This document shows, piece by piece, positions 2,935 through 35,089 of a stretch of 38,888 nt of DNA. Numbering within the stretch: position 1 is the first letter of the stretch; each line of letters begins with the position of its first letter. The notes under the pieces were generated by a model. That model made no database searches, had not been told where the DNA came from, and saw nothing but the letters and a program-made list of their open reading frames with translations. The position numbers and the translations under genes are program-made. Source of the stretch: a virus; the UHGV virus genome UHGV-0098678; one strand, written 5' to 3'.

Positions 2935-3232
2935 GTTTAGACCTCGATATTTTGAAAATATGAACAACGTTACCGCGTGTTTTAATAACCGCGGCAAGCA
3001 TGACAGCGTTGATAATGACCTCAGATAAATCCACAGCCATTGGCGTGCGTAACCAGATTGCATAGACGACACGAACAGGAATACTTGCCGCAGCAACAAT
3101 AAGGAAATAAGCAAGCCACCCTCCCCATCTTCGATGTTGAGAGCCGTTACGCCGGAATGTGACAACGCGAATTGCTATGCCAGTACAAATAACTGCATTG
3201 GTGATAAGCAAAAAAAACTCATGCGTTACCAT
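2924..3232 (-). CDS. holin-like membrane protein (holin or antiholin)
   Basis: 102 aa with 2-3 predicted TM segments; ATG at 3232 with GGGGAG upstream; directly precedes and overlaps the endolysin start. Confidence 0.5.
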   Translation of the reverse strand: MVTHEFFLLITNAVICTGIAIRVVTFRRNGSQHRRWGGWLAYFLIVAAASIPVRVVYAIWLRTPMAVDLSEVIINAVMLAAVIKTRGNVVHIFKISRSKHGD

Positions 3233-3623
3233 CGTCTTTTCTCCCCGGAATTAACTCGCGTGGATTATCGGAACGGTGATAGAGCCAGATGCCAATACGC
3301 ACGGCGACAATTGCTGACACGAATGCGCCTGCAGAGAAAACAATCCCTTTTTCAAAAGAGTCCTGCGTGATGGTAGGGATCAGGCTGGCTATGCCGATAA
3401 GAATTGATGCTGCTGGTTTGTAAAAGAGAAGGCCGCAAAGAAAGCTGAGCATCGACAGGAGCACCCGGCGACGGATGGGGTACTCTACTGCAGAGGTAAC
3501 AAAAATTACCGCCCCAGCCAAAGCCCCTAAAGCAACCTCCGGAGGGACACCTGCAATAACCGCAGCAAGAGAACTAACACTAAGCCACTGATTTGAAGTT
3601 TCATTGGTTAGTTGGAATGACAT
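3219..3623 (-). CDS. holin-like membrane protein
   Basis: 134 aa with several hydrophobic helices (LAAVIAGVPPEVALGALAGAVIFV, ILIGIASLIPTI, FSAGAFVSAIVAVRIGIWLY) and a charged C-terminus; first gene of the lysis cassette after the tail fiber. Confidence 0.45.
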   Translation of the reverse strand: MSFQLTNETSNQWLSVSSLAAVIAGVPPEVALGALAGAVIFVTSAVEYPIRRRVLLSMLSFLCGLLFYKPAASILIGIASLIPTITQDSFEKGIVFSAGAFVSAIVAVRIGIWLYHRSDNPRELIPGRKDDGNA

Positions 3624-3695
3624 AACGAAACCCGTTTATTTGCAAACACCCTGCTTCAGGAAAAGTATACCGCGCAACAACACACCATTTACGGT

Positions 3696-6158: not shown

Positions 6159-6262
6159 GTTAAATCTCCAGATAGTCGCAGCACCCGTTGCGCCGCATAT
6201 CTGGTTATTCTATTACCCAAAAAACCATATATGGATAGAAAGACTGTGAATATGAATAGATA

Positions 6263-6277
6263 TTACCTTTCAGGTAA
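6263..6277. promoter_or_regulatory. 15-bp palindrome TTACC-N5-GGTAA (putative repressor operator)
   Basis: TTACCtttcaGGTAA, extended palindrome aTTACC...GGTAAt at 6262-6278; about 40 bp upstream of the LexA box and antirepressor gene; same core as the site at 24915. Confidence 0.5.
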
Positions 6278-6314
6278 TTTGCAAAACGTGCTGGATAGCA
6301 AACAAATTATTTGA

Positions 6315-6334
6315 TACTGTATAAATATACAGTT
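6315..6334. promoter_or_regulatory. LexA (SOS) box
   Basis: tACTGTataaatatACAGtt: CTGT-N8-ACAG with AT-rich spacer, matching the gammaproteobacterial LexA consensus TACTGTATATATATACAGTA; ends 6 nt before the ATG at 6340. Confidence 0.8.
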
Positions 6335-6339
6335 ATTGC

Positions 6340-6612
6340 ATGGAGAAGATTAAGATGCAGCAGTATCACTATCCACTGGAAGAGGGATTTACCGAAAGGA
6401 TTCACACGCCGGGAGGCGTCAGGTCACTGGTGGAGGGATCGCACTTGATGAAATTACTCCGGGATCTCGATAAGGATGGATTTAATGTCGATGGCCCACT
6501 TGCCGAACTGACTGCACTGATTAACTACGTCACCAGCTCACAGATGTCTATGCAGGATCTGCAAACACATCTCGACTATTGTGCCGAACAATTACGAAAA
6601 CAAACCAGATAA
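6340..6612 (+). CDS. small LexA-controlled antirepressor-like protein (start 6340 or 6355)
   Basis: 90-aa ORF directly behind the LexA box; about 75 aa align with the C-terminal domain of the adjacent Bro-N protein (LMKLLRDLDKDGFNVDGPLAELT vs LMNLLNQLQDDGHDVSGAAAELT; QDLQTH vs RDIQTH). Confidence 0.55.
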   Translation: MEKIKMQQYHYPLEEGFTERIHTPGGVRSLVEGSHLMKLLRDLDKDGFNVDGPLAELTALINYVTSSQMSMQDLQTHLDYCAEQLRKQTR

Positions 6613-6643
6613 GGTTTGAAATTACCAAATGGAGTGCTTATAT

Positions 6644-6658
6644 TTACCTTTGCGGTAA
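6644..6658. promoter_or_regulatory. 15-bp palindrome TTACC-N5-GGTAA (putative operator)
   Basis: TTACCtttgcGGTAA inside a 19-bp perfect palindrome atTTACCtttgcGGTAAat (6642-6660); itself flanked by inverted repeat GGAGTGC/GCACTCC. Confidence 0.45.
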
Positions 6659-6751
6659 ATTTACATTGCACTCCTCTTGTGCCATAGTAATCAGGCACTG
6701 GCAAAATCCAGTGCCGGGATTGGTCTCCCGGATTACTACAGAGGCACATAT

Positions 6752-6771
6752 GCCGCATAAGCGGTTTTTTT
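6752..6771 (+). terminator. weak rho-independent terminator candidate
   Basis: Short GC stem (CCGC ataa GCGG) followed by seven T residues, about 140 nt downstream of the small antirepressor ORF. Confidence 0.3.
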
Positions 6772-6925
6772 ATGTGTAAAGCGCACCTATTCTATGGTGG
6801 GCTGTGTGGGGGCACCGAAAGGTGCGCCGGGTTCCTTTGTAGCCGGTAAGACCAACTCTGCACAGTTCACCACCATCTGATTGGTCTCAGCGGTGGTGAT
6901 TAACCTAACTACAAAGGTGATCGCC

Positions 6926-7618
6926 ATGAATACCAAACCTTCCATCTTTTCCTTTGAGTCATCCTGCCAGATCCGTATGTTCATGATTGACGGAGAACCT
7001 TGGTTTGTCACCAAAGATGTGTGCAATGCTTTGAATATTGATGTTACACAAGCGAGAAAACTTGATAAAAAAGGCTGGAACAAAAAGGGGCTGTATTCAA
7101 TACAGACCCCTGGTGGAATACAAGAACTATCCATCGTTTCAGAATCAGGTCTCTACATCCTTATTCTGCGTTGCAAAGAGGCAATGACAGAGGGAACGAG
7201 AGCATTCAGATTTCTTGAATGGGTTACAGGTGAGGTTCTTCCTCAGATCCGCCGCACCGGAAGTTACATTAAAAACTCGCTCCCGCAGGAAGAACGCATA
7301 AAGATGGTTGCCGACCAGGTAGCCAACGCCACAGCATCAGCAGTGATGCAGGCAATGAAGATAGAGAACAAAACCTACAGTGCCCCACTGAAGCCCGGCT
7401 ACCGCAGCCTGATTCACTCGCCGTCTGGTGTTCTCGGCCTGACGGAGAACTCACTGCTGATGAATCTGCTGAACCAGTTACAGGACGACGGGCACGACGT
7501 ATCGGGCGCGGCGGCGGAGCTGACCACCATGTTCTGCTACATCGTTGGTGTGAGCAAATGCCTGCGTGATATCCAGACGCACGCGGAGTACATCAACGAC
7601 AAGGCAGGGTTCTTCTGA
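6926..7618 (+). CDS. Bro-N domain antirepressor
   Basis: ATG at 6926 with SD AAAGGTGA; N-terminus FSFESSCQIRMFMIDGEPWFVTKDVCNALNI matches the Bro-N/antirepressor fold; C-terminal domain is paralogous to the small ORF at 6340-6612. Confidence 0.75.
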   Translation: MNTKPSIFSFESSCQIRMFMIDGEPWFVTKDVCNALNIDVTQARKLDKKGWNKKGLYSIQTPGGIQELSIVSESGLYILILRCKEAMTEGTRAFRFLEWVTGEVLPQIRRTGSYIKNSLPQEERIKMVADQVANATASAVMQAMKIENKTYSAPLKPGYRSLIHSPSGVLGLTENSLLMNLLNQLQDDGHDVSGAAAELTTMFCYIVGVSKCLRDIQTHAEYINDKAGFF

Positions 7619-7684
7619 CGGGCGGCGGCACAGGGATGTGCCTTTAAAATAATCATTGGCGATGTGATGTAGATTCGCGTAATA

Positions 7685-7699
7685 TTACCTTAAAGGTAA
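7685..7699. promoter_or_regulatory. 15-bp palindrome TTACC-N5-GGTAA (putative operator)
   Basis: TTACCttaaaGGTAA immediately upstream of the SD (AGGAGG) and ATG of the 55-aa ORF at 7712. Confidence 0.45.
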
Positions 7700-7711
7700 A
7701 GGAGGCGCGAT

Positions 7712-7879
7712 ATGACAGCGTTGAAAAATCGTACTCAGCACAATGAACAAGCCAAGCAATGCTGGGATGTCATTGGAAAAGTTATGCTTGGTCGCGCAAG
7801 CAAAGAGCGCGACAAGGATATGGTTTACCAGACAGGAACATCTTTTAGCGACTTCAAGGCGGCATTTCGCTCCAAATAG
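7712..7879 (+). CDS. hypothetical small basic protein (55 aa)
   Basis: Not in the ORF track (under 60 aa); ATG 7712 with strong SD AAAGGAGG; translated by hand as MTALKNRTQHNEQAKQCWDVIGKVMLGRASKERDKDMVYQTGTSFSDFKAAFRSK; stop TAG 7877-7879. Confidence 0.45.
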   Translation: MTALKNRTQHNEQAKQCWDVIGKVMLGRASKERDKDMVYQTGTSFSDFKAAFRSK

Positions 7880-7899
7880 AAGCACATCAGGAGTTTTCC

Positions 7900-8343
7900 T
7901 TGAAGTTTAACATTAGAATATCTAATAGTTTTCTACATGGGGAAAGCAACACCCCTTTCGCTGTAGACGGACCTTTCCTTACTGATGATGAAATAAAAAT
8001 CATACAAAGGTTTTTAGAGGATGTTGCCAATGGAAGGGCGCTTGTTGGAAAAAACAAGCCATCGTGGGTTGATGATAACCATGATAAAATTCCCGGCTCA
8101 GACAATTATGAGCAAGAGAATTATTGGCATTATCATTGTGGGCCAACATGGTATCCAAACACATTTAAGAATTATACCATTAACTTAAATTTCAACCCTG
8201 GCGGAATGCATTCTAATGAATGCATTCATTATGCAAAAAATGATAATGAAATTGTCATTGTTGGATTTTCAAGAGAACACATACCTTTCCTTTCATCAGA
8301 TGGAAACAACAATCCGCTTTTTAATGATGAAGAAGAAGAATAA
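7900..8343 (+). CDS. hypothetical protein with acidic C-terminal tail (moron)
   Basis: TTG start at 7900 with AGGAG 6 nt upstream; 147 aa, low-GC coding sequence, C-terminus ...NDEEEE; followed directly by a terminator. No recognisable family. Confidence 0.55.
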   Translation: MKFNIRISNSFLHGESNTPFAVDGPFLTDDEIKIIQRFLEDVANGRALVGKNKPSWVDDNHDKIPGSDNYEQENYWHYHCGPTWYPNTFKNYTINLNFNPGGMHSNECIHYAKNDNEIVIVGFSREHIPFLSSDGNNNPLFNDEEEE

Positions 8344-8627: not shown

Positions 8628-9479
8628 TCACTGTGCAGTTTTCGCTGATCGATTTTCAGCTCTAAATTCAAGAACCGTTTCAATATTTCTTTCCTTCAGC
8701 ATATCAATAACATTTTTATTCATTTGACTATCACTGGTTAATAACTGGTAAACGTTGCTTCTCTCTTTATCAGAGTTTTCTTTAACAGCTGCTTTGCATG
8801 CCAAATGCTTATTGAAATTTTCTACATCGCTAGTACAGGAATTTACGGCTGCTGATGAAATATCAGACGCTGAAGAAACACCGTCATCCAAACGTTTTAT
8901 AGCATTTTCTATACATGAGTTAAGGGAATAAACGACAACTGAGCGATACCCTTCAGACGCACACCATTCTAAATTTCTTGAAGGATCGAGTGGTTTTACT
9001 TCGCTGGATTGAATTAACTTGTCAAAAACTGACTTATATTCAATCTGTTTTTTATCTATAGCCCATACTTCAGTAGCTGATTTATAATTCCCCGTATGCC
9101 TATTAACATCAAATCCATGTTTTATAAGCAAATCTGCCCATGAAAGATTTATTGATTCATTGTTATGAGGCCATTTTCCTGTCAGAACCGCCCCCATAGA
9201 CCCCATATATCCGCCATATGATGGTATAGCACCATGGCTCAGTAACTTCTCTGCAACCACAGGGCAATTAATTACATAAGAGGCGTAAAGCCCATTCCAT
9301 AAAGCCCCTCTATAGTAATCGCCACGATTAGGTTCTTTTAAGTCGATAGCCTTTGATAATTGTTCGCACGTTTTGCATGCATCAAAGTTATCCTTATTGC
9401 ATTGCAATGAACTGGCAGCTGTAGGATTTACAGAGACTATTGAAAGCACTATGCCAAAAAACAAATTTATTTTTTTCAT
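8628..9479 (-). CDS. secreted Cys-rich protein, possibly with degenerate ankyrin-like repeats (moron)
   Basis: ATG 9479 lies 1 nt after the stop of the upstream virion-protein gene; signal peptide MKKINLFFGIVLSIVSVNPTAASS; AT-rich; segments such as ADLLIKHGFDVNRHTG resemble ankyrin repeat cores. Confidence 0.55.
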   Translation of the reverse strand: MKKINLFFGIVLSIVSVNPTAASSLQCNKDNFDACKTCEQLSKAIDLKEPNRGDYYRGALWNGLYASYVINCPVVAEKLLSHGAIPSYGGYMGSMGAVLTGKWPHNNESINLSWADLLIKHGFDVNRHTGNYKSATEVWAIDKKQIEYKSVFDKLIQSSEVKPLDPSRNLEWCASEGYRSVVVYSLNSCIENAIKRLDDGVSSASDISSAAVNSCTSDVENFNKHLACKAAVKENSDKERSNVYQLLTSDSQMNKNVIDMLKERNIETVLEFRAENRSAKTAQ

Positions 9480-24914: not shown

Positions 24915-24929
24915 TTACCTTTCAGGTAA
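24915..24929. promoter_or_regulatory. 15-bp palindrome TTACC-N5-GGTAA (putative operator)
   Basis: TTACCtttcaGGTAA, same core as the site at 6263; a TTGACA hexamer lies 17 nt upstream (24893-24898); in the noncoding gap between the portal-side genes and the tRNA. Confidence 0.45.
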
Positions 24930-25251: not shown

Positions 25252-25328
25252 GTGGCATTAGCTCAGTTGGACAGAGCAACCGCCTTCTAAGCGGTTGGTC
25301 GCAGGTTCGAATCCTGCATGCCACGCCA
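25252..25328 (+). tRNA. tRNA-Arg (anticodon UCU)
   Basis: Hand-folded cloverleaf: acceptor GTGGCAT/ATGCCAC, D-arm GCTC...GAGC, anticodon stem ACCGC/GCGGT with loop CTTCTAA (anticodon TCT), 5-nt variable loop, T-arm GCAGG-TTCGAAT-CCTGC, discriminator G, encoded CCA. Confidence 0.85.
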
Positions 25329-25414: not shown

Positions 25415-25490
25415 CAGCAGGACGCCATTGCGATGACTTCATGCTGTAAACCAGTACAGCCACGGAAGGCATAACTCATTGCTTCCAGTT

Positions 25491-28078: not shown

Positions 28079-28093
28079 TTACCGTTGTGGTAA
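28079..28093. promoter_or_regulatory. 15-bp palindrome TTACC-N5-GGTAA (putative operator)
   Basis: TTACCgttgtGGTAA about 18 nt upstream of the proposed TerS start, just downstream of a - strand terminator hairpin. Confidence 0.45.
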
Positions 28094-31904: not shown

Positions 31905-31919
31905 TTACCTCTAAGGTAA
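31905..31919. promoter_or_regulatory. 15-bp palindrome TTACC-N5-GGTAA (putative operator)
   Basis: TTACCtctaaGGTAA overlapping the SD of the 31557-31901 gene. Confidence 0.45.
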
Positions 31920-34213: not shown

Positions 34214-34280
34214 AGCTATTGCCTGATATTTATTTCAGATAATAAATATTCACCCATAAGGTAACAAAAATCAAGGATAG

Positions 34281-34295
34281 TTACCTATGGGGTGC
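34281..34295. promoter_or_regulatory. imperfect operator TTACC-N5-GGTGC in the repressor/Cro intergenic region
   Basis: TTACCtatggGGTGC, centre 17 bp from the adjacent perfect site. Confidence 0.4.
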
Positions 34296-34297
34296 AT

Positions 34298-34312
34298 TTA
34301 CCTGTTGGGTAA
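34298..34312. promoter_or_regulatory. operator TTACC-N5-GGTAA in the repressor/Cro intergenic region (OR-like)
   Basis: TTACCtgttgGGTAA between the divergent Cro-like (start 34213) and repressor (start 34368) genes. Confidence 0.55.
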
Positions 34313-35009: not shown

Positions 35010-35024
35010 TTACCTTACGGGTAA
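35010..35024. promoter_or_regulatory. operator TTACC-N5-GGTAA (OL-like)
   Basis: TTACCttacgGGTAA downstream of the repressor terminator. Confidence 0.5.
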
Positions 35025-35043
35025 TTTTTTTAACTCATATCTA

Positions 35044-35072
35044 TTGACACCAAACCAAATAAGCATAATTAT
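35044..35072 (+). promoter_or_regulatory. candidate sigma70 promoter (pL-like) for the + strand early operon
   Basis: TTGACA (35044-35049), 17-nt spacer, AATTAT (35067-35072); its -10 abuts the operator at 35075. Confidence 0.4.
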
Positions 35073-35074
35073 TA

Positions 35075-35089
35075 CCCCAACGGTAACAG
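35075..35089. promoter_or_regulatory. operator TTACC-N5-GGTAA (OL-like)
   Basis: TTACCccaacGGTAA immediately downstream of the candidate -10; a further half-site GAGGTAAC follows at 35094-35101. Confidence 0.5.

Follow-up and report, generated by a model that had tools for sequence, protein, structure and literature searches.

A predicted two-tier anti-immunity and induction locus in an epsilon15-like temperate podophage of Escherichia coli

The nearest described relative of the locus treated here, an antirepressor region in the virus genome UHGV-0098678, is the Rep-Ant system of Salmonella phage SPC32H, reportedly worked out by Kim and Ryu (J Virol, 2013) and by Kim et al. (PNAS, 2016) and represented in the Protein Data Bank (PDB) by entries 5D4Z and 5D50. 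The SPC32H repressor, Rep, is said by Kim and Ryu to stay uncleaved during the SOS response, and a point mutation in the LexA box reportedly makes production of the antirepressor, Ant, constitutive. Two other papers describe a LexA-controlled Ant acting on uncleaved Rep (PMC7380047) and a Rep that binds DNA as a tetramer, which is broken when a tetrameric Ant binds two Rep dimers (PMC9638917). GfoA and GftA of the Gifsy prophages and Tum of phage 186 are likewise LexA-repressed small antirepressors that inactivate a non-cleavable repressor (PMC3121763), while phage N15 possesses both a LexA-controlled AntC and a secondary immunity operon, immA (AntA), governed by a small processed RNA (PMC4488713, PMC3121763). 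Here we analyze the whole 38,888-nt stretch of UHGV-0098678 (the window) and argue that the locus is probably the anti-immunity and induction region of a Uetakevirus, arranged in two tiers: a small antirepressor gene under a predicted LexA box and, next to it, a gene for a larger Bro-N protein with a related C-terminal domain, placed behind a predicted Rep operator and two RNAs of the isrK and C4 families. The coordinates of all features are collected in Table 1.

Sequence relationships place the window among the epsilon15-like temperate podophages (genus Uetakevirus) of E. coli. The closest DNA matches to positions 6200-7900 were the Escherichia phages EC.W1-9, HEMP4, phiv142-3, vB_EcoP_ZX5, TL-2011b, and phiV10; the records among these that have a genus assigned (phiV10, ZX5, and phiv142-3) give Uetakevirus, as does that of SPC32H. 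The initial annotation of the window had attached the locus to a T7-like virion module. This we reject, since the nearest genomes are Uetakeviruses (epsilon15, phiV10, SPC32H) and the PHROG families matched by the structural genes (portal, capsid, tail, internal virion proteins) are podoviral ones of a generic kind, with no T7-type (Autographiviridae) structural genes among them; the virion is better described as epsilon15-like. A match to the locus was present in 542 of 5426 complete E. coli genomes (~10%), extending over nearly the full 1.5 kb in 126.

The first tier is anchored by a single LexA box. Scored with a position weight matrix (PWM) trained on 21 known E. coli SOS boxes, the site reached 27.2 bits, as compared with 12.8 to 26.5 bits for the training sites themselves, 11.45 bits for the next-best site in the window, and 21.3 bits for the best site in 200 shuffles, which bears out the earlier description of a near-consensus box. 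The bare pattern CTGT-N8-ACAG is not enriched in the window (15 copies versus 13.7 expected), so that it is the quality of this one site that counts; simple counting of the pattern was dropped as a test in favor of the PWM. The box is kept upstream of the orthologous gene in seven phages from four host genera; the box, the palindrome upstream of it, and the block GCTGGATAG recur ahead of the ortholog in phiV10, SPC32H, epsilon15, Enterobacter phage Tyrion, and two Klebsiella phages. Both hexamers of the putative small-ant promoter, TGGATA and TACTGT, are conserved in 7/7 aligned loci; a scan for consensus promoters found none at the LexA box, these hexamers falling below its threshold, and their assignment is based on conservation. 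From this putative promoter we infer that the box overlaps the -10 element.

The small ant frame is open from 6340 to 6612, and a Shine-Dalgarno (SD) sequence, GGAG at 6342-6345, precedes the ATG at 6355. This ATG is the likely start, as it has an SD and agrees with the annotated starts in SPC32H and phiV10, and the predicted product is therefore 85 aa long. It is 88 to 89% identical to the product of the SPC32H gene annotated as "ant: anti-repressor protein," matches PDB chain 5D50_E ("Anti-repressor protein") with an E value of 1.6e-47 over 83 of its 85 residues, and is encoded in the same place as SPC32H Ant, adjoining the tailspike gene and divergent from it. As had been noticed at the outset, it is also homologous to the C terminus of the adjacent Bro-N protein (33 of 78 residues identical to residues 145-222, 42%; E 8e-17). 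In current annotations of such phages, the Bro-N gene alone is given as "the" antirepressor, and the LexA-controlled small ant is overlooked.

The presumptive target is similarly recognizable. Rep, 194 aa long, shares 42 to 43% identity with SPC32H Rep from end to end, and matches PDB chain 5D50_A ("Repressor") full length (E 3.5e-42) as well as the isolated C-terminal domain in 5D4Z (E 3.6e-20). In Pfam it gives HTH_3, a helix-turn-helix (HTH) domain, at aa 106-147 and a weak second HTH-like match at aa 21-61; the hidden Markov model (HMM) search returned no Peptidase_S24 even at E<=0.1, in agreement with the claim that this repressor lacks an autocleavage module. A lambda-type, RecA-cleavable repressor was rejected on the same ground, the C-terminal domain matching the tetramerization domain of SPC32H Rep (5D4Z) instead.

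What Rep binds is suggested by the palindrome TTACC-N5-GGTAA, present in the window in 10 exact and three one-mismatch copies versus 0.54 expected, a count that 0/100 shuffles reached. SPC32H has 18 copies (0.52 expected), clustered around rep, with three of them between rep and its divergent neighbor. We predict this palindrome to be the Rep operator. In the window, copies flank the repressor gene (34250, 34298, 35010, 35072) and three lie in the ant locus (6263, 6644, 7685). Five operators (6644, 7685, 35072, 28079, 31967) share a common geometry: the T that closes a -10 hexamer also opens TTACC. Operator 28079 precedes terS, and operator 24915 is found close to where the structural gene block begins; with those at the early operons, this distribution suggests that Rep guards each lytic unit directly, as it seems to us. 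The sites at 31905/31967, 35010/35072, and 34250/34298 form pairs with centers 62, 62, and 48 bp apart, and those at 6263, 6644, 7685, 24915, 28079, and 33913 are solitary. Such pairs and scattered sites would fit a tetramer that has two DNA-binding units, with repressor sites spread over all lytic units much as for P1 C1.

The orthology of Ant and Rep to their SPC32H counterparts supports the original proposal of induction through a LexA-derepressed antirepressor acting on a non-autocleaving repressor. In the lysogen, host LexA would occupy the box overlapping the small-ant promoter and keep the gene silent; upon DNA damage LexA would be removed, the 85-aa Ant would be made, and this protein would bind the non-cleavable tetrameric Rep and strip it from the TTACC-N5-GGTAA operators guarding every lytic unit. 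We are highly confident that LexA represses the small ant and that the small Ant dismantles Rep tetramers, as shown for the SPC32H ortholog and carried over to the window. This core circuit of LexA, Ant, and Rep is already known from SPC32H, and the earlier prediction, right as it is, re-derives an established system. It had been likened to Gifsy-type prophages; the logic is indeed the same, but the nearest homologous system is that of SPC32H (Ant 88% identical), not Gifsy.

A second tier, absent from the initial annotation, is indicated by two Rfam RNAs that lie above their gathering thresholds (GA) between the two ant genes, an isrK-like RNA and a C4-type antisense RNA. C4 has a predicted minimum free energy fold of -43.6 kcal/mol in which the expected hairpins are present. 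Its a' loop is complementary both to a2, on the SD of the large ant gene, and to a1 in isrK (9-nt matches), and its b' junction is complementary to b2 and to b1 in the isrK loop (7-nt matches). In 15 loci, a'/a1/a2 and b'/b1/b2 stand at fixed offsets. Alignment column counts for the b helices gave 100% pairing for b1-b' with four doubly compensated pairs, and 95% for b'-b2 with three, compared with at most 51% pairing for slid control helices. For the a sites, pair counting by columns was dropped, as MAFFT misregisters the variable loops; they were tested by loop-restricted complement searches and cross-locus permutations. Over nine different a' types, a' matched its own a2 and its own a1 better than in any of 20000 permutations of the partners. 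RNAduplex runs of whole C4 against its targets were also abandoned, since the program unfolded everything and was uninformative. Judged from the alignments, the pairing of C4 with the leader and isrK sites is beyond chance and covaries three ways. E. coli phages whose Rep proteins are at least 99% identical carry four a'/b' combinations, each with matching a1, a2, b1, and b2.

The arrangement is widespread. More than 200 phage records, those of Stx phages, Gifsy-1, SfV, and APSE among them, have such an isrK-C4 pair ahead of an antirepressor-like gene, and in relatives of the window the Rfam family RF03163, c4-a1b1 ("a1, b1 targets of C4"), overlaps isrK. The insert of isrK, C4, and large ant is missing from SPC32H and present in phiV10 and other E. 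coli, Enterobacter, and Klebsiella relatives. One might take the two sequences for an inert relic that a mobile antirepressor cassette has brought with it, and the truncation of the phiV10 large ant inside the C-terminal domain (194 aa) indicates that the module can decay. With both RNAs well above the Rfam thresholds, and with three-way compensatory changes kept even among very close relatives in four a'/b' types, we consider this explanation extremely improbable and retain C4 as a predicted regulator.

The RNA stretches are labeled "hypothetical" or "ash family protein" in current annotations. Wholly inside C4 lies a 28-codon ATG open reading frame (ORF; 6794-6880), whose equivalent is called "ash family protein" in ZX5 and in Hafnia phage yong2 and whose position is that of Gifsy-1 orf45. 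As it ends 46 nt before ant, it is probably no real gene here.

The operon has a predicted promoter of its own, positionally homologous to the isrK promoters of Gifsy-1, VT2-Sakai, APSE-1, and SfV. A Rep operator adjoins it in 9/9 Uetakevirus loci, with conserved half-sites and variable spacers, and such an operator was absent from the six non-Uetakevirus phages whose upstream sequence was inspected. The 6926 gene does not belong to the LexA unit; it has this promoter abutting a Rep operator, and stands behind C4 and an isrK-like RNA with a terminator.

In phiV10, the operator is the center of a perfect inverted repeat with 18-bp arms, GGAGTGCTTATATTTACC-GCAAA-GGTAAATATAAGCACTCC (around 2780-2830 of the locus extract); in the window (6630-6675), the right arm of this repeat has diverged into the TTTACA -35 element. 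In two relatives, TL-2011b (1031-2119) and EC.W1-9 (1036-1951, both in locus-extract coordinates), the small ant is set apart from the isrK promoter by an insert of ~1.1 kb that holds opposite-strand ORFs. These insertions suggest that the corresponding junction in the window (~6612-6640) is an insertion hot spot and that the two ant units are separable.

The gene behind C4 encodes a 230-aa protein in which Pfam detects Bro-N at aa 16-106 (51.4 bits versus a cutoff of 25.6), so that the Bro-N antirepressor named in the initial annotation is confirmed as to its domain. Its C terminus matches 5D50_E (E 1.6e-13), and 21 columns are invariant across the Ant family with this domain included. A word-indexed search with the small Ant returned mostly stand-alone orthologs of ~86 aa and no C-terminal fusions among the 120 matches listed, and a profile search was needed: run exhaustively over 1.84 billion proteins, it found only 63 representative clusters with an Ant domain. 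In the longer of these proteins, the domain is C-terminal behind Bro-N, AntA, Rha, or ORF6N heads, which are classical antirepressor N-terminal domains. Among E. coli phages that share one Rep, the large Ants are 93 to 99% identical over their final 85 residues and 20 to 68% over the remainder; in phiv142-3, the N-terminal part is replaced by an AntA head. Identity of the C-terminal domain moves in step with that of Rep (99/79/52% versus 99/78/45%, with Tyrion at 79 versus 78 and a Klebsiella phage at 52 versus 45). We take the C-terminal domain to be a Rep-directed module, and the small Ant to be its free-standing paralog, as these sequence patterns suggest.

When the homologous Bro-N protein of vB_EcoP_ZX5, the "ORF4 anti-repressor," was overexpressed, lysogens dropped from 1e9 to 1e6, or ~1000-fold (PMC9782041); the study mentions no small ant, LexA, or RNAs (PMC9782041). 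It could still be argued that the 230-aa protein is no Rep antirepressor and that its C terminus merely oligomerizes, serving, for example, DNA binding by Bro-N or the formation of mixed tetramers that modulate the small Ant. Because Ant forms a tetramer, self-assembly could account for the conserved residues; what Bro-N domains do is poorly defined, and the C-terminal domain is only 36 to 42% identical to the small Ant. Self-assembly by itself sits poorly with a domain that stays 93 to 99% identical among Rep-identical phages while N-terminal domains are exchanged, that diverges along with Rep, and that is found fused to all four kinds of classical antirepressor head. The lowered lysogeny in ZX5 speaks against it too, as does the location of the gene behind a C4 cassette, the type of element that controls antirepressors in P1 and Gifsy-1. 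We judge this alternative quite unlikely and continue to regard the large protein as a candidate Rep antirepressor.

In phiV10, the large antirepressor gene (p23; 3074-3658 of the locus extract) encodes 194 aa; midway through the Ant C-terminal domain it leaves the frame and stops (...LLMNRTTGMMYQARRRS). From the sequences, this reference phage appears to carry a truncated large ant, and ZX5 and TL-2011b an intact 231-aa form.

Less clear is the role of the operator at 6263, for which the initial annotation had proposed joint control of the small ant by LexA and the phage repressor. The operator itself is real and conserved: its half-sites are kept and its spacer varies in seven related phages, and the GenBank record of epsilon15 annotates the equivalent palindrome upstream of gp19 as "protein_bind: repressor," with an IHF site adjoining. 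It lies 37 bp upstream of the LexA box. That it controls the small ant is not established: it stands between two divergent promoters, its center is ~57 bp ahead of the likely ant start site, and a search of both strands at this operator found no promoter with the -10 overlap seen at the five other sites. Dual control through 6263 is possible but unproven, and the operator could just as well belong to the tailspike promoter or anchor a loop.

In the fuller form of the earlier proposal, both ant genes belong to one SOS circuit and the small ant answers to LexA at 6315-6334 and to Rep at 6263. The proximity of the operator to the LexA box and its conserved position in seven phages would agree with this, and on the + strand no terminator was found between the small ant and the isrK promoter, which would allow some read-through. 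The operator center lies outside the core promoter, however, and the large ant has a promoter, operator, terminator, and antisense RNA of its own; in EC.W1-9 and TL-2011b, ~1.1 kb of opposite-strand sequence separates the two units, and SPC32H does without any large ant. Taken together, a single dually controlled SOS circuit seems doubtful.

It is a plausible thought, if one that we stop short of calling probable, that the 6263 operator has nothing to do with ant control and serves the divergent tailspike promoter or anchors a loop of the Rep tetramer. The window and SPC32H both have the site 105 bp ahead of the tailspike ATG, and the invariant block at 6207-6236 offers a minus-strand TAGAAT as a -10 candidate, together with TTCATA-17 in Salmonella and Klebsiella phages and a weaker TCCATA in the window. 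Rep operators precede the other lytic units that were checked (terS at 28079, the site at 24915 near the start of the structural block, the early operons); the IHF site beside the epsilon15 operator and a Rep tetramer with two DNA-binding units (PMC9638917) would suit a loop. Yet the operator is ~63-77 bp upstream of the candidate tailspike start site and thus no classical occlusion site there either, and no tailspike promoter passed the consensus scan. We keep LexA as the predicted regulator of the small ant and Rep as that of the isrK promoter.

Between the tailspike start and the 6263 operator, seven phages share an invariant block, ATTCTATTACC...AACC.TATATG (6207-6238). In the window it holds the perfect palindrome CCATATATGG, a lone TTACC half-site, and the minus-strand TAGAAT as a possible tailspike -10.

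How might the second tier work? We picture Rep repressing the isrK/C4/large-ant promoter through the abutting operator. When the promoter fires, the isrK-like RNA would mostly terminate at 6771, with read-through giving C4 and then the mRNA of the 230-aa Bro-N::Ant protein; C4 would pair through a' and b' with a2 and b2, covering the SD and leaving the large Ant untranslated. Both Rep repression of this promoter, as suggested by the position and conservation of the operator, and a C4 block of large-ant translation, as suggested by covariation, we consider likely. The short isrK RNA, with its mimic sites a1 and b1, could titrate C4. Large Ant would then appear only when Rep is already leaving the DNA and isrK outnumbers C4, conditions that would make it a positive-feedback latch on induction; and, as in P1/P7 immI, the cassette would confer RNA-typed anti-immunity against resident prophages with the same Rep. 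That short isrK relieves the C4 block, and that the net role is an induction latch plus RNA-typed anti-immunity, is put forward more tentatively, as a view with somewhat less in its favor than against it.

The two-tier model as a whole, which we hold to be the probable one, is built from sequence evidence, and several points weigh against it. In Gifsy-1, IsrK supplied in trans activates translation of the downstream antirepressor through mRNA remodeling and orf45 coupling (PMC4825925), and overexpression of the C4-like STnc1160 did not relieve toxicity (PMC4825925); a simple step in which the decoy titrates C4 may thus be wrong in detail. The window lacks an icd-like coupled ORF as found in P1. 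In the first tier, the small-ant promoter hexamers are weak and stay under the scan threshold. Finally, identity to the Salmonella counterpart is 88 to 89% for the small Ant and only 42 to 43% for Rep, so that binding of the window Ant to the window Rep is assumed. The small Ant might contact only conserved surfaces of Rep, or might act across phages; the C-terminal domain of the large Ant instead diverges with Rep.

The locus continues into a region with a third promoter-like site that overlaps a Rep operator. Behind it, on the + strand, follow ORFs of 55 aa (7712-7879) and 147 aa (7900-8343), matching PHROG 8607 and 5954 of unknown function, and then a minus-strand ORF of 283 aa (8628-9479; PHROG 6118, unknown) with a hydrophobic N terminus. 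SPC32H lacks these three ORFs at the corresponding place, and we read them as cargo genes. Elsewhere, a tRNA gene (25252-25325; Rfam 73.3 bits) lies between the terminase and portal blocks, its SPC32H counterpart being annotated as tRNA-Arg. The LexA-like site that ranks third in the window, TGCTGTAAACCAGTACAGCC (25442-25461), lies about 120 bp downstream of this gene and, at 10.2 bits, is below the range of real boxes.

Table 1. Features of the ant locus and of the rep region in the window (columns: feature, position, strand with a point for sites without orientation, details)
Rep operator TTACCTTTCAGGTAA	6263..6277	.	Spacer between divergent tailspike and small ant genes; target promoter uncertain
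Putative small-ant promoter	6292..6320	+	-35 TGGATA (6292-6297), 17-nt spacer, -10 TACTGT (6315-6320)
LexA (SOS) box TACTGTATAAATATACAGTT	6315..6334	.	Overlaps putative -10 and start site; PWM 27.2 bits
Small antirepressor Ant, 85 aa	6355..6612	+	ORF open from 6340; ATG 6355 has SD
Promoter-like site	6616..6644	+	TTGAAA-17-TATATT, 10/12 consensus positions, stronger-looking; -10 ends on first base of the 6644 operator
Rep operator TTACCTTTGCGGTAA	6644..6658	.	Abuts -35 of isrK promoter; overlaps -10 and start of TTGAAA-17-TATATT
Predicted isrK/C4/large-ant operon promoter	6660..6688	+	TTTACA-17-CATAGT (TG-extended), start near 6695
isrK-like RNA (c4-a1b1 equivalent)	6695..6771	+	Rfam isrK RF01394, 74.7 bits vs GA 50
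isrK parts	b1 6720-6726; a1 6736-6744; terminator 6752-6771	+	b1 UUGGUCU; a1 CUACAGAGG; intrinsic terminator
C4-type antisense RNA	6790..6877	+	Rfam RF01695, 78.6 bits vs GA 45, full-length match
C4 parts	a' 6834-6842; b' 6849-6855	+	a' loop CCUUUGUAG; b' junction AGACCAA
Predicted C4 target sites, large-ant leader	6881..6920	+	b2 UUGGUCU 6881-6887; a2 CUACAAAGG 6909-6917, overlapping SD AAGGUGA 6914-6920
Candidate large antirepressor, 230 aa	6926..7618	+	Bro-N aa 16-106 fused to SPC32H-type Ant domain aa ~149-225
Third promoter-like site	7656..7699	+	TTGGCG-18-TAATAT, overlapping Rep operator TTACCTTAAAGGTAA (7685-7699)
Rep operator pair	34250..34312	.	34250-34264 (one mismatch) and 34298-34312, between rep and divergent cro-like gene
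Rep, prophage repressor, 194 aa	34368..34952	+	HTH domains, no S24 peptidase domain
Rep operator pair, 62 bp apart	35010..35086	.	Second overlaps -10 of TTGACA-17-AATTAT, recombination-operon early promoter

The module is likely how a common E. coli prophage family, including phiV10-like phages of O157 and enterotoxigenic E. coli, decides to kill its host, and what the present analysis adds is that the E. coli members carry a second antirepressor missing in SPC32H. We also entertain a broader idea, possible though less than probable: E. coli Uetakeviruses would share one Rep and carry interchangeable, RNA-typed cassettes, with the small Ant a free copy of the Rep-targeting tail and the large Ant both a latch and a determinant of heteroimmunity in the P1/P7 style. 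If so, a superinfecting phage of another C4 type could overcome the immunity set up by a resident prophage whose repressor is identical, which would bear on superinfection outcomes, on cross-induction of prophages, and on the design of phiV10-based phage reporters. The four compensated a'/b' types are a clean natural test set for C4/isrK specificity.

Among known systems, SPC32H is closest in its genes. It too is a Uetakevirus with ant between the tailspike and structural genes, an Ant 88% identical to that of the window, a Rep homolog without S24, a LexA box at the same place upstream of ant, and the TTACC-N5-GGTAA motif, including one copy upstream of ant. It differs in that Rep is only 42% identical and ant stands alone, with no isrK/C4/large-ant module. 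Compared by description, Gifsy GfoA/GftA and 186 Tum work by the same logic in different phage types and at different gene positions.

For the second tier, the model is immI of P1 and P7, which comprises a C1-controlled promoter, the c4 antisense RNA, icd, and ant. Like the window, it has a C4-family RNA whose a' and b' match a1 and b1 upstream and a2 and b2 downstream, on the ribosome-binding site; its promoter lies beside an operator of the primary repressor and its payload is, as predicted for the window, an antirepressor (PMC8201110). P1 and P7 share their primary repressor and differ in RNA specificity type (PMC8201110), as do the Uetakeviruses. Between C4 and ant, the window has no icd-like ORF, only the 28-codon ORF inside C4, and a2 lies directly on the ant SD; the window differs further in being a podovirus with an integrated prophage and in having a second, LexA-controlled paralogous Ant next door. 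In the Gifsy-1 isrK-orf45-anrP locus, which is said to have been described by Hershko-Shalev et al. in 2016, isrK is likewise followed by a C4-like RNA (STnc1160, at orf45), with the promoter in the same position; next comes an antirepressor-like gene, and the C4 loop is complementary to its SD region. Unlike the window, Gifsy-1 has no Rep-type operator at its isrK promoter, and the mechanism published for it is mRNA refolding with orf45 coupling. Homology of the 230-aa protein to Gifsy-1 AnrP was considered and rejected (BLASTP against STM2616, E 3.5).

In logic, the closest analogue is N15, where one phage has two antirepressor routes, one SOS-controlled and one RNA-controlled. Its routes occupy two separate loci with no protein homology reported between them in the descriptions used for this comparison, whereas the units of the window are adjacent and would share a paralogous Rep-directed domain. 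We found no description of tandem LexA- and C4-keyed paralogous antirepressor domains in the literature searched, which did not extend to the primary SPC32H work, nor one of RNA-level heteroimmunity in integrated podophages. The locus thus combines two known kinds of system, the Rep/Ant SOS switch of SPC32H and a C4/isrK-gated antirepressor operon like those of P1 immI, N15 immA, and Gifsy-1 isrK. What appears distinctive, judging from the genomes compared, is that the two units are adjacent, that they share a paralogous, putatively Rep-directed domain, and that the specificity of the RNA cassette varies among phages with an identical Rep, recalling the heteroimmunity of P1 and P7.

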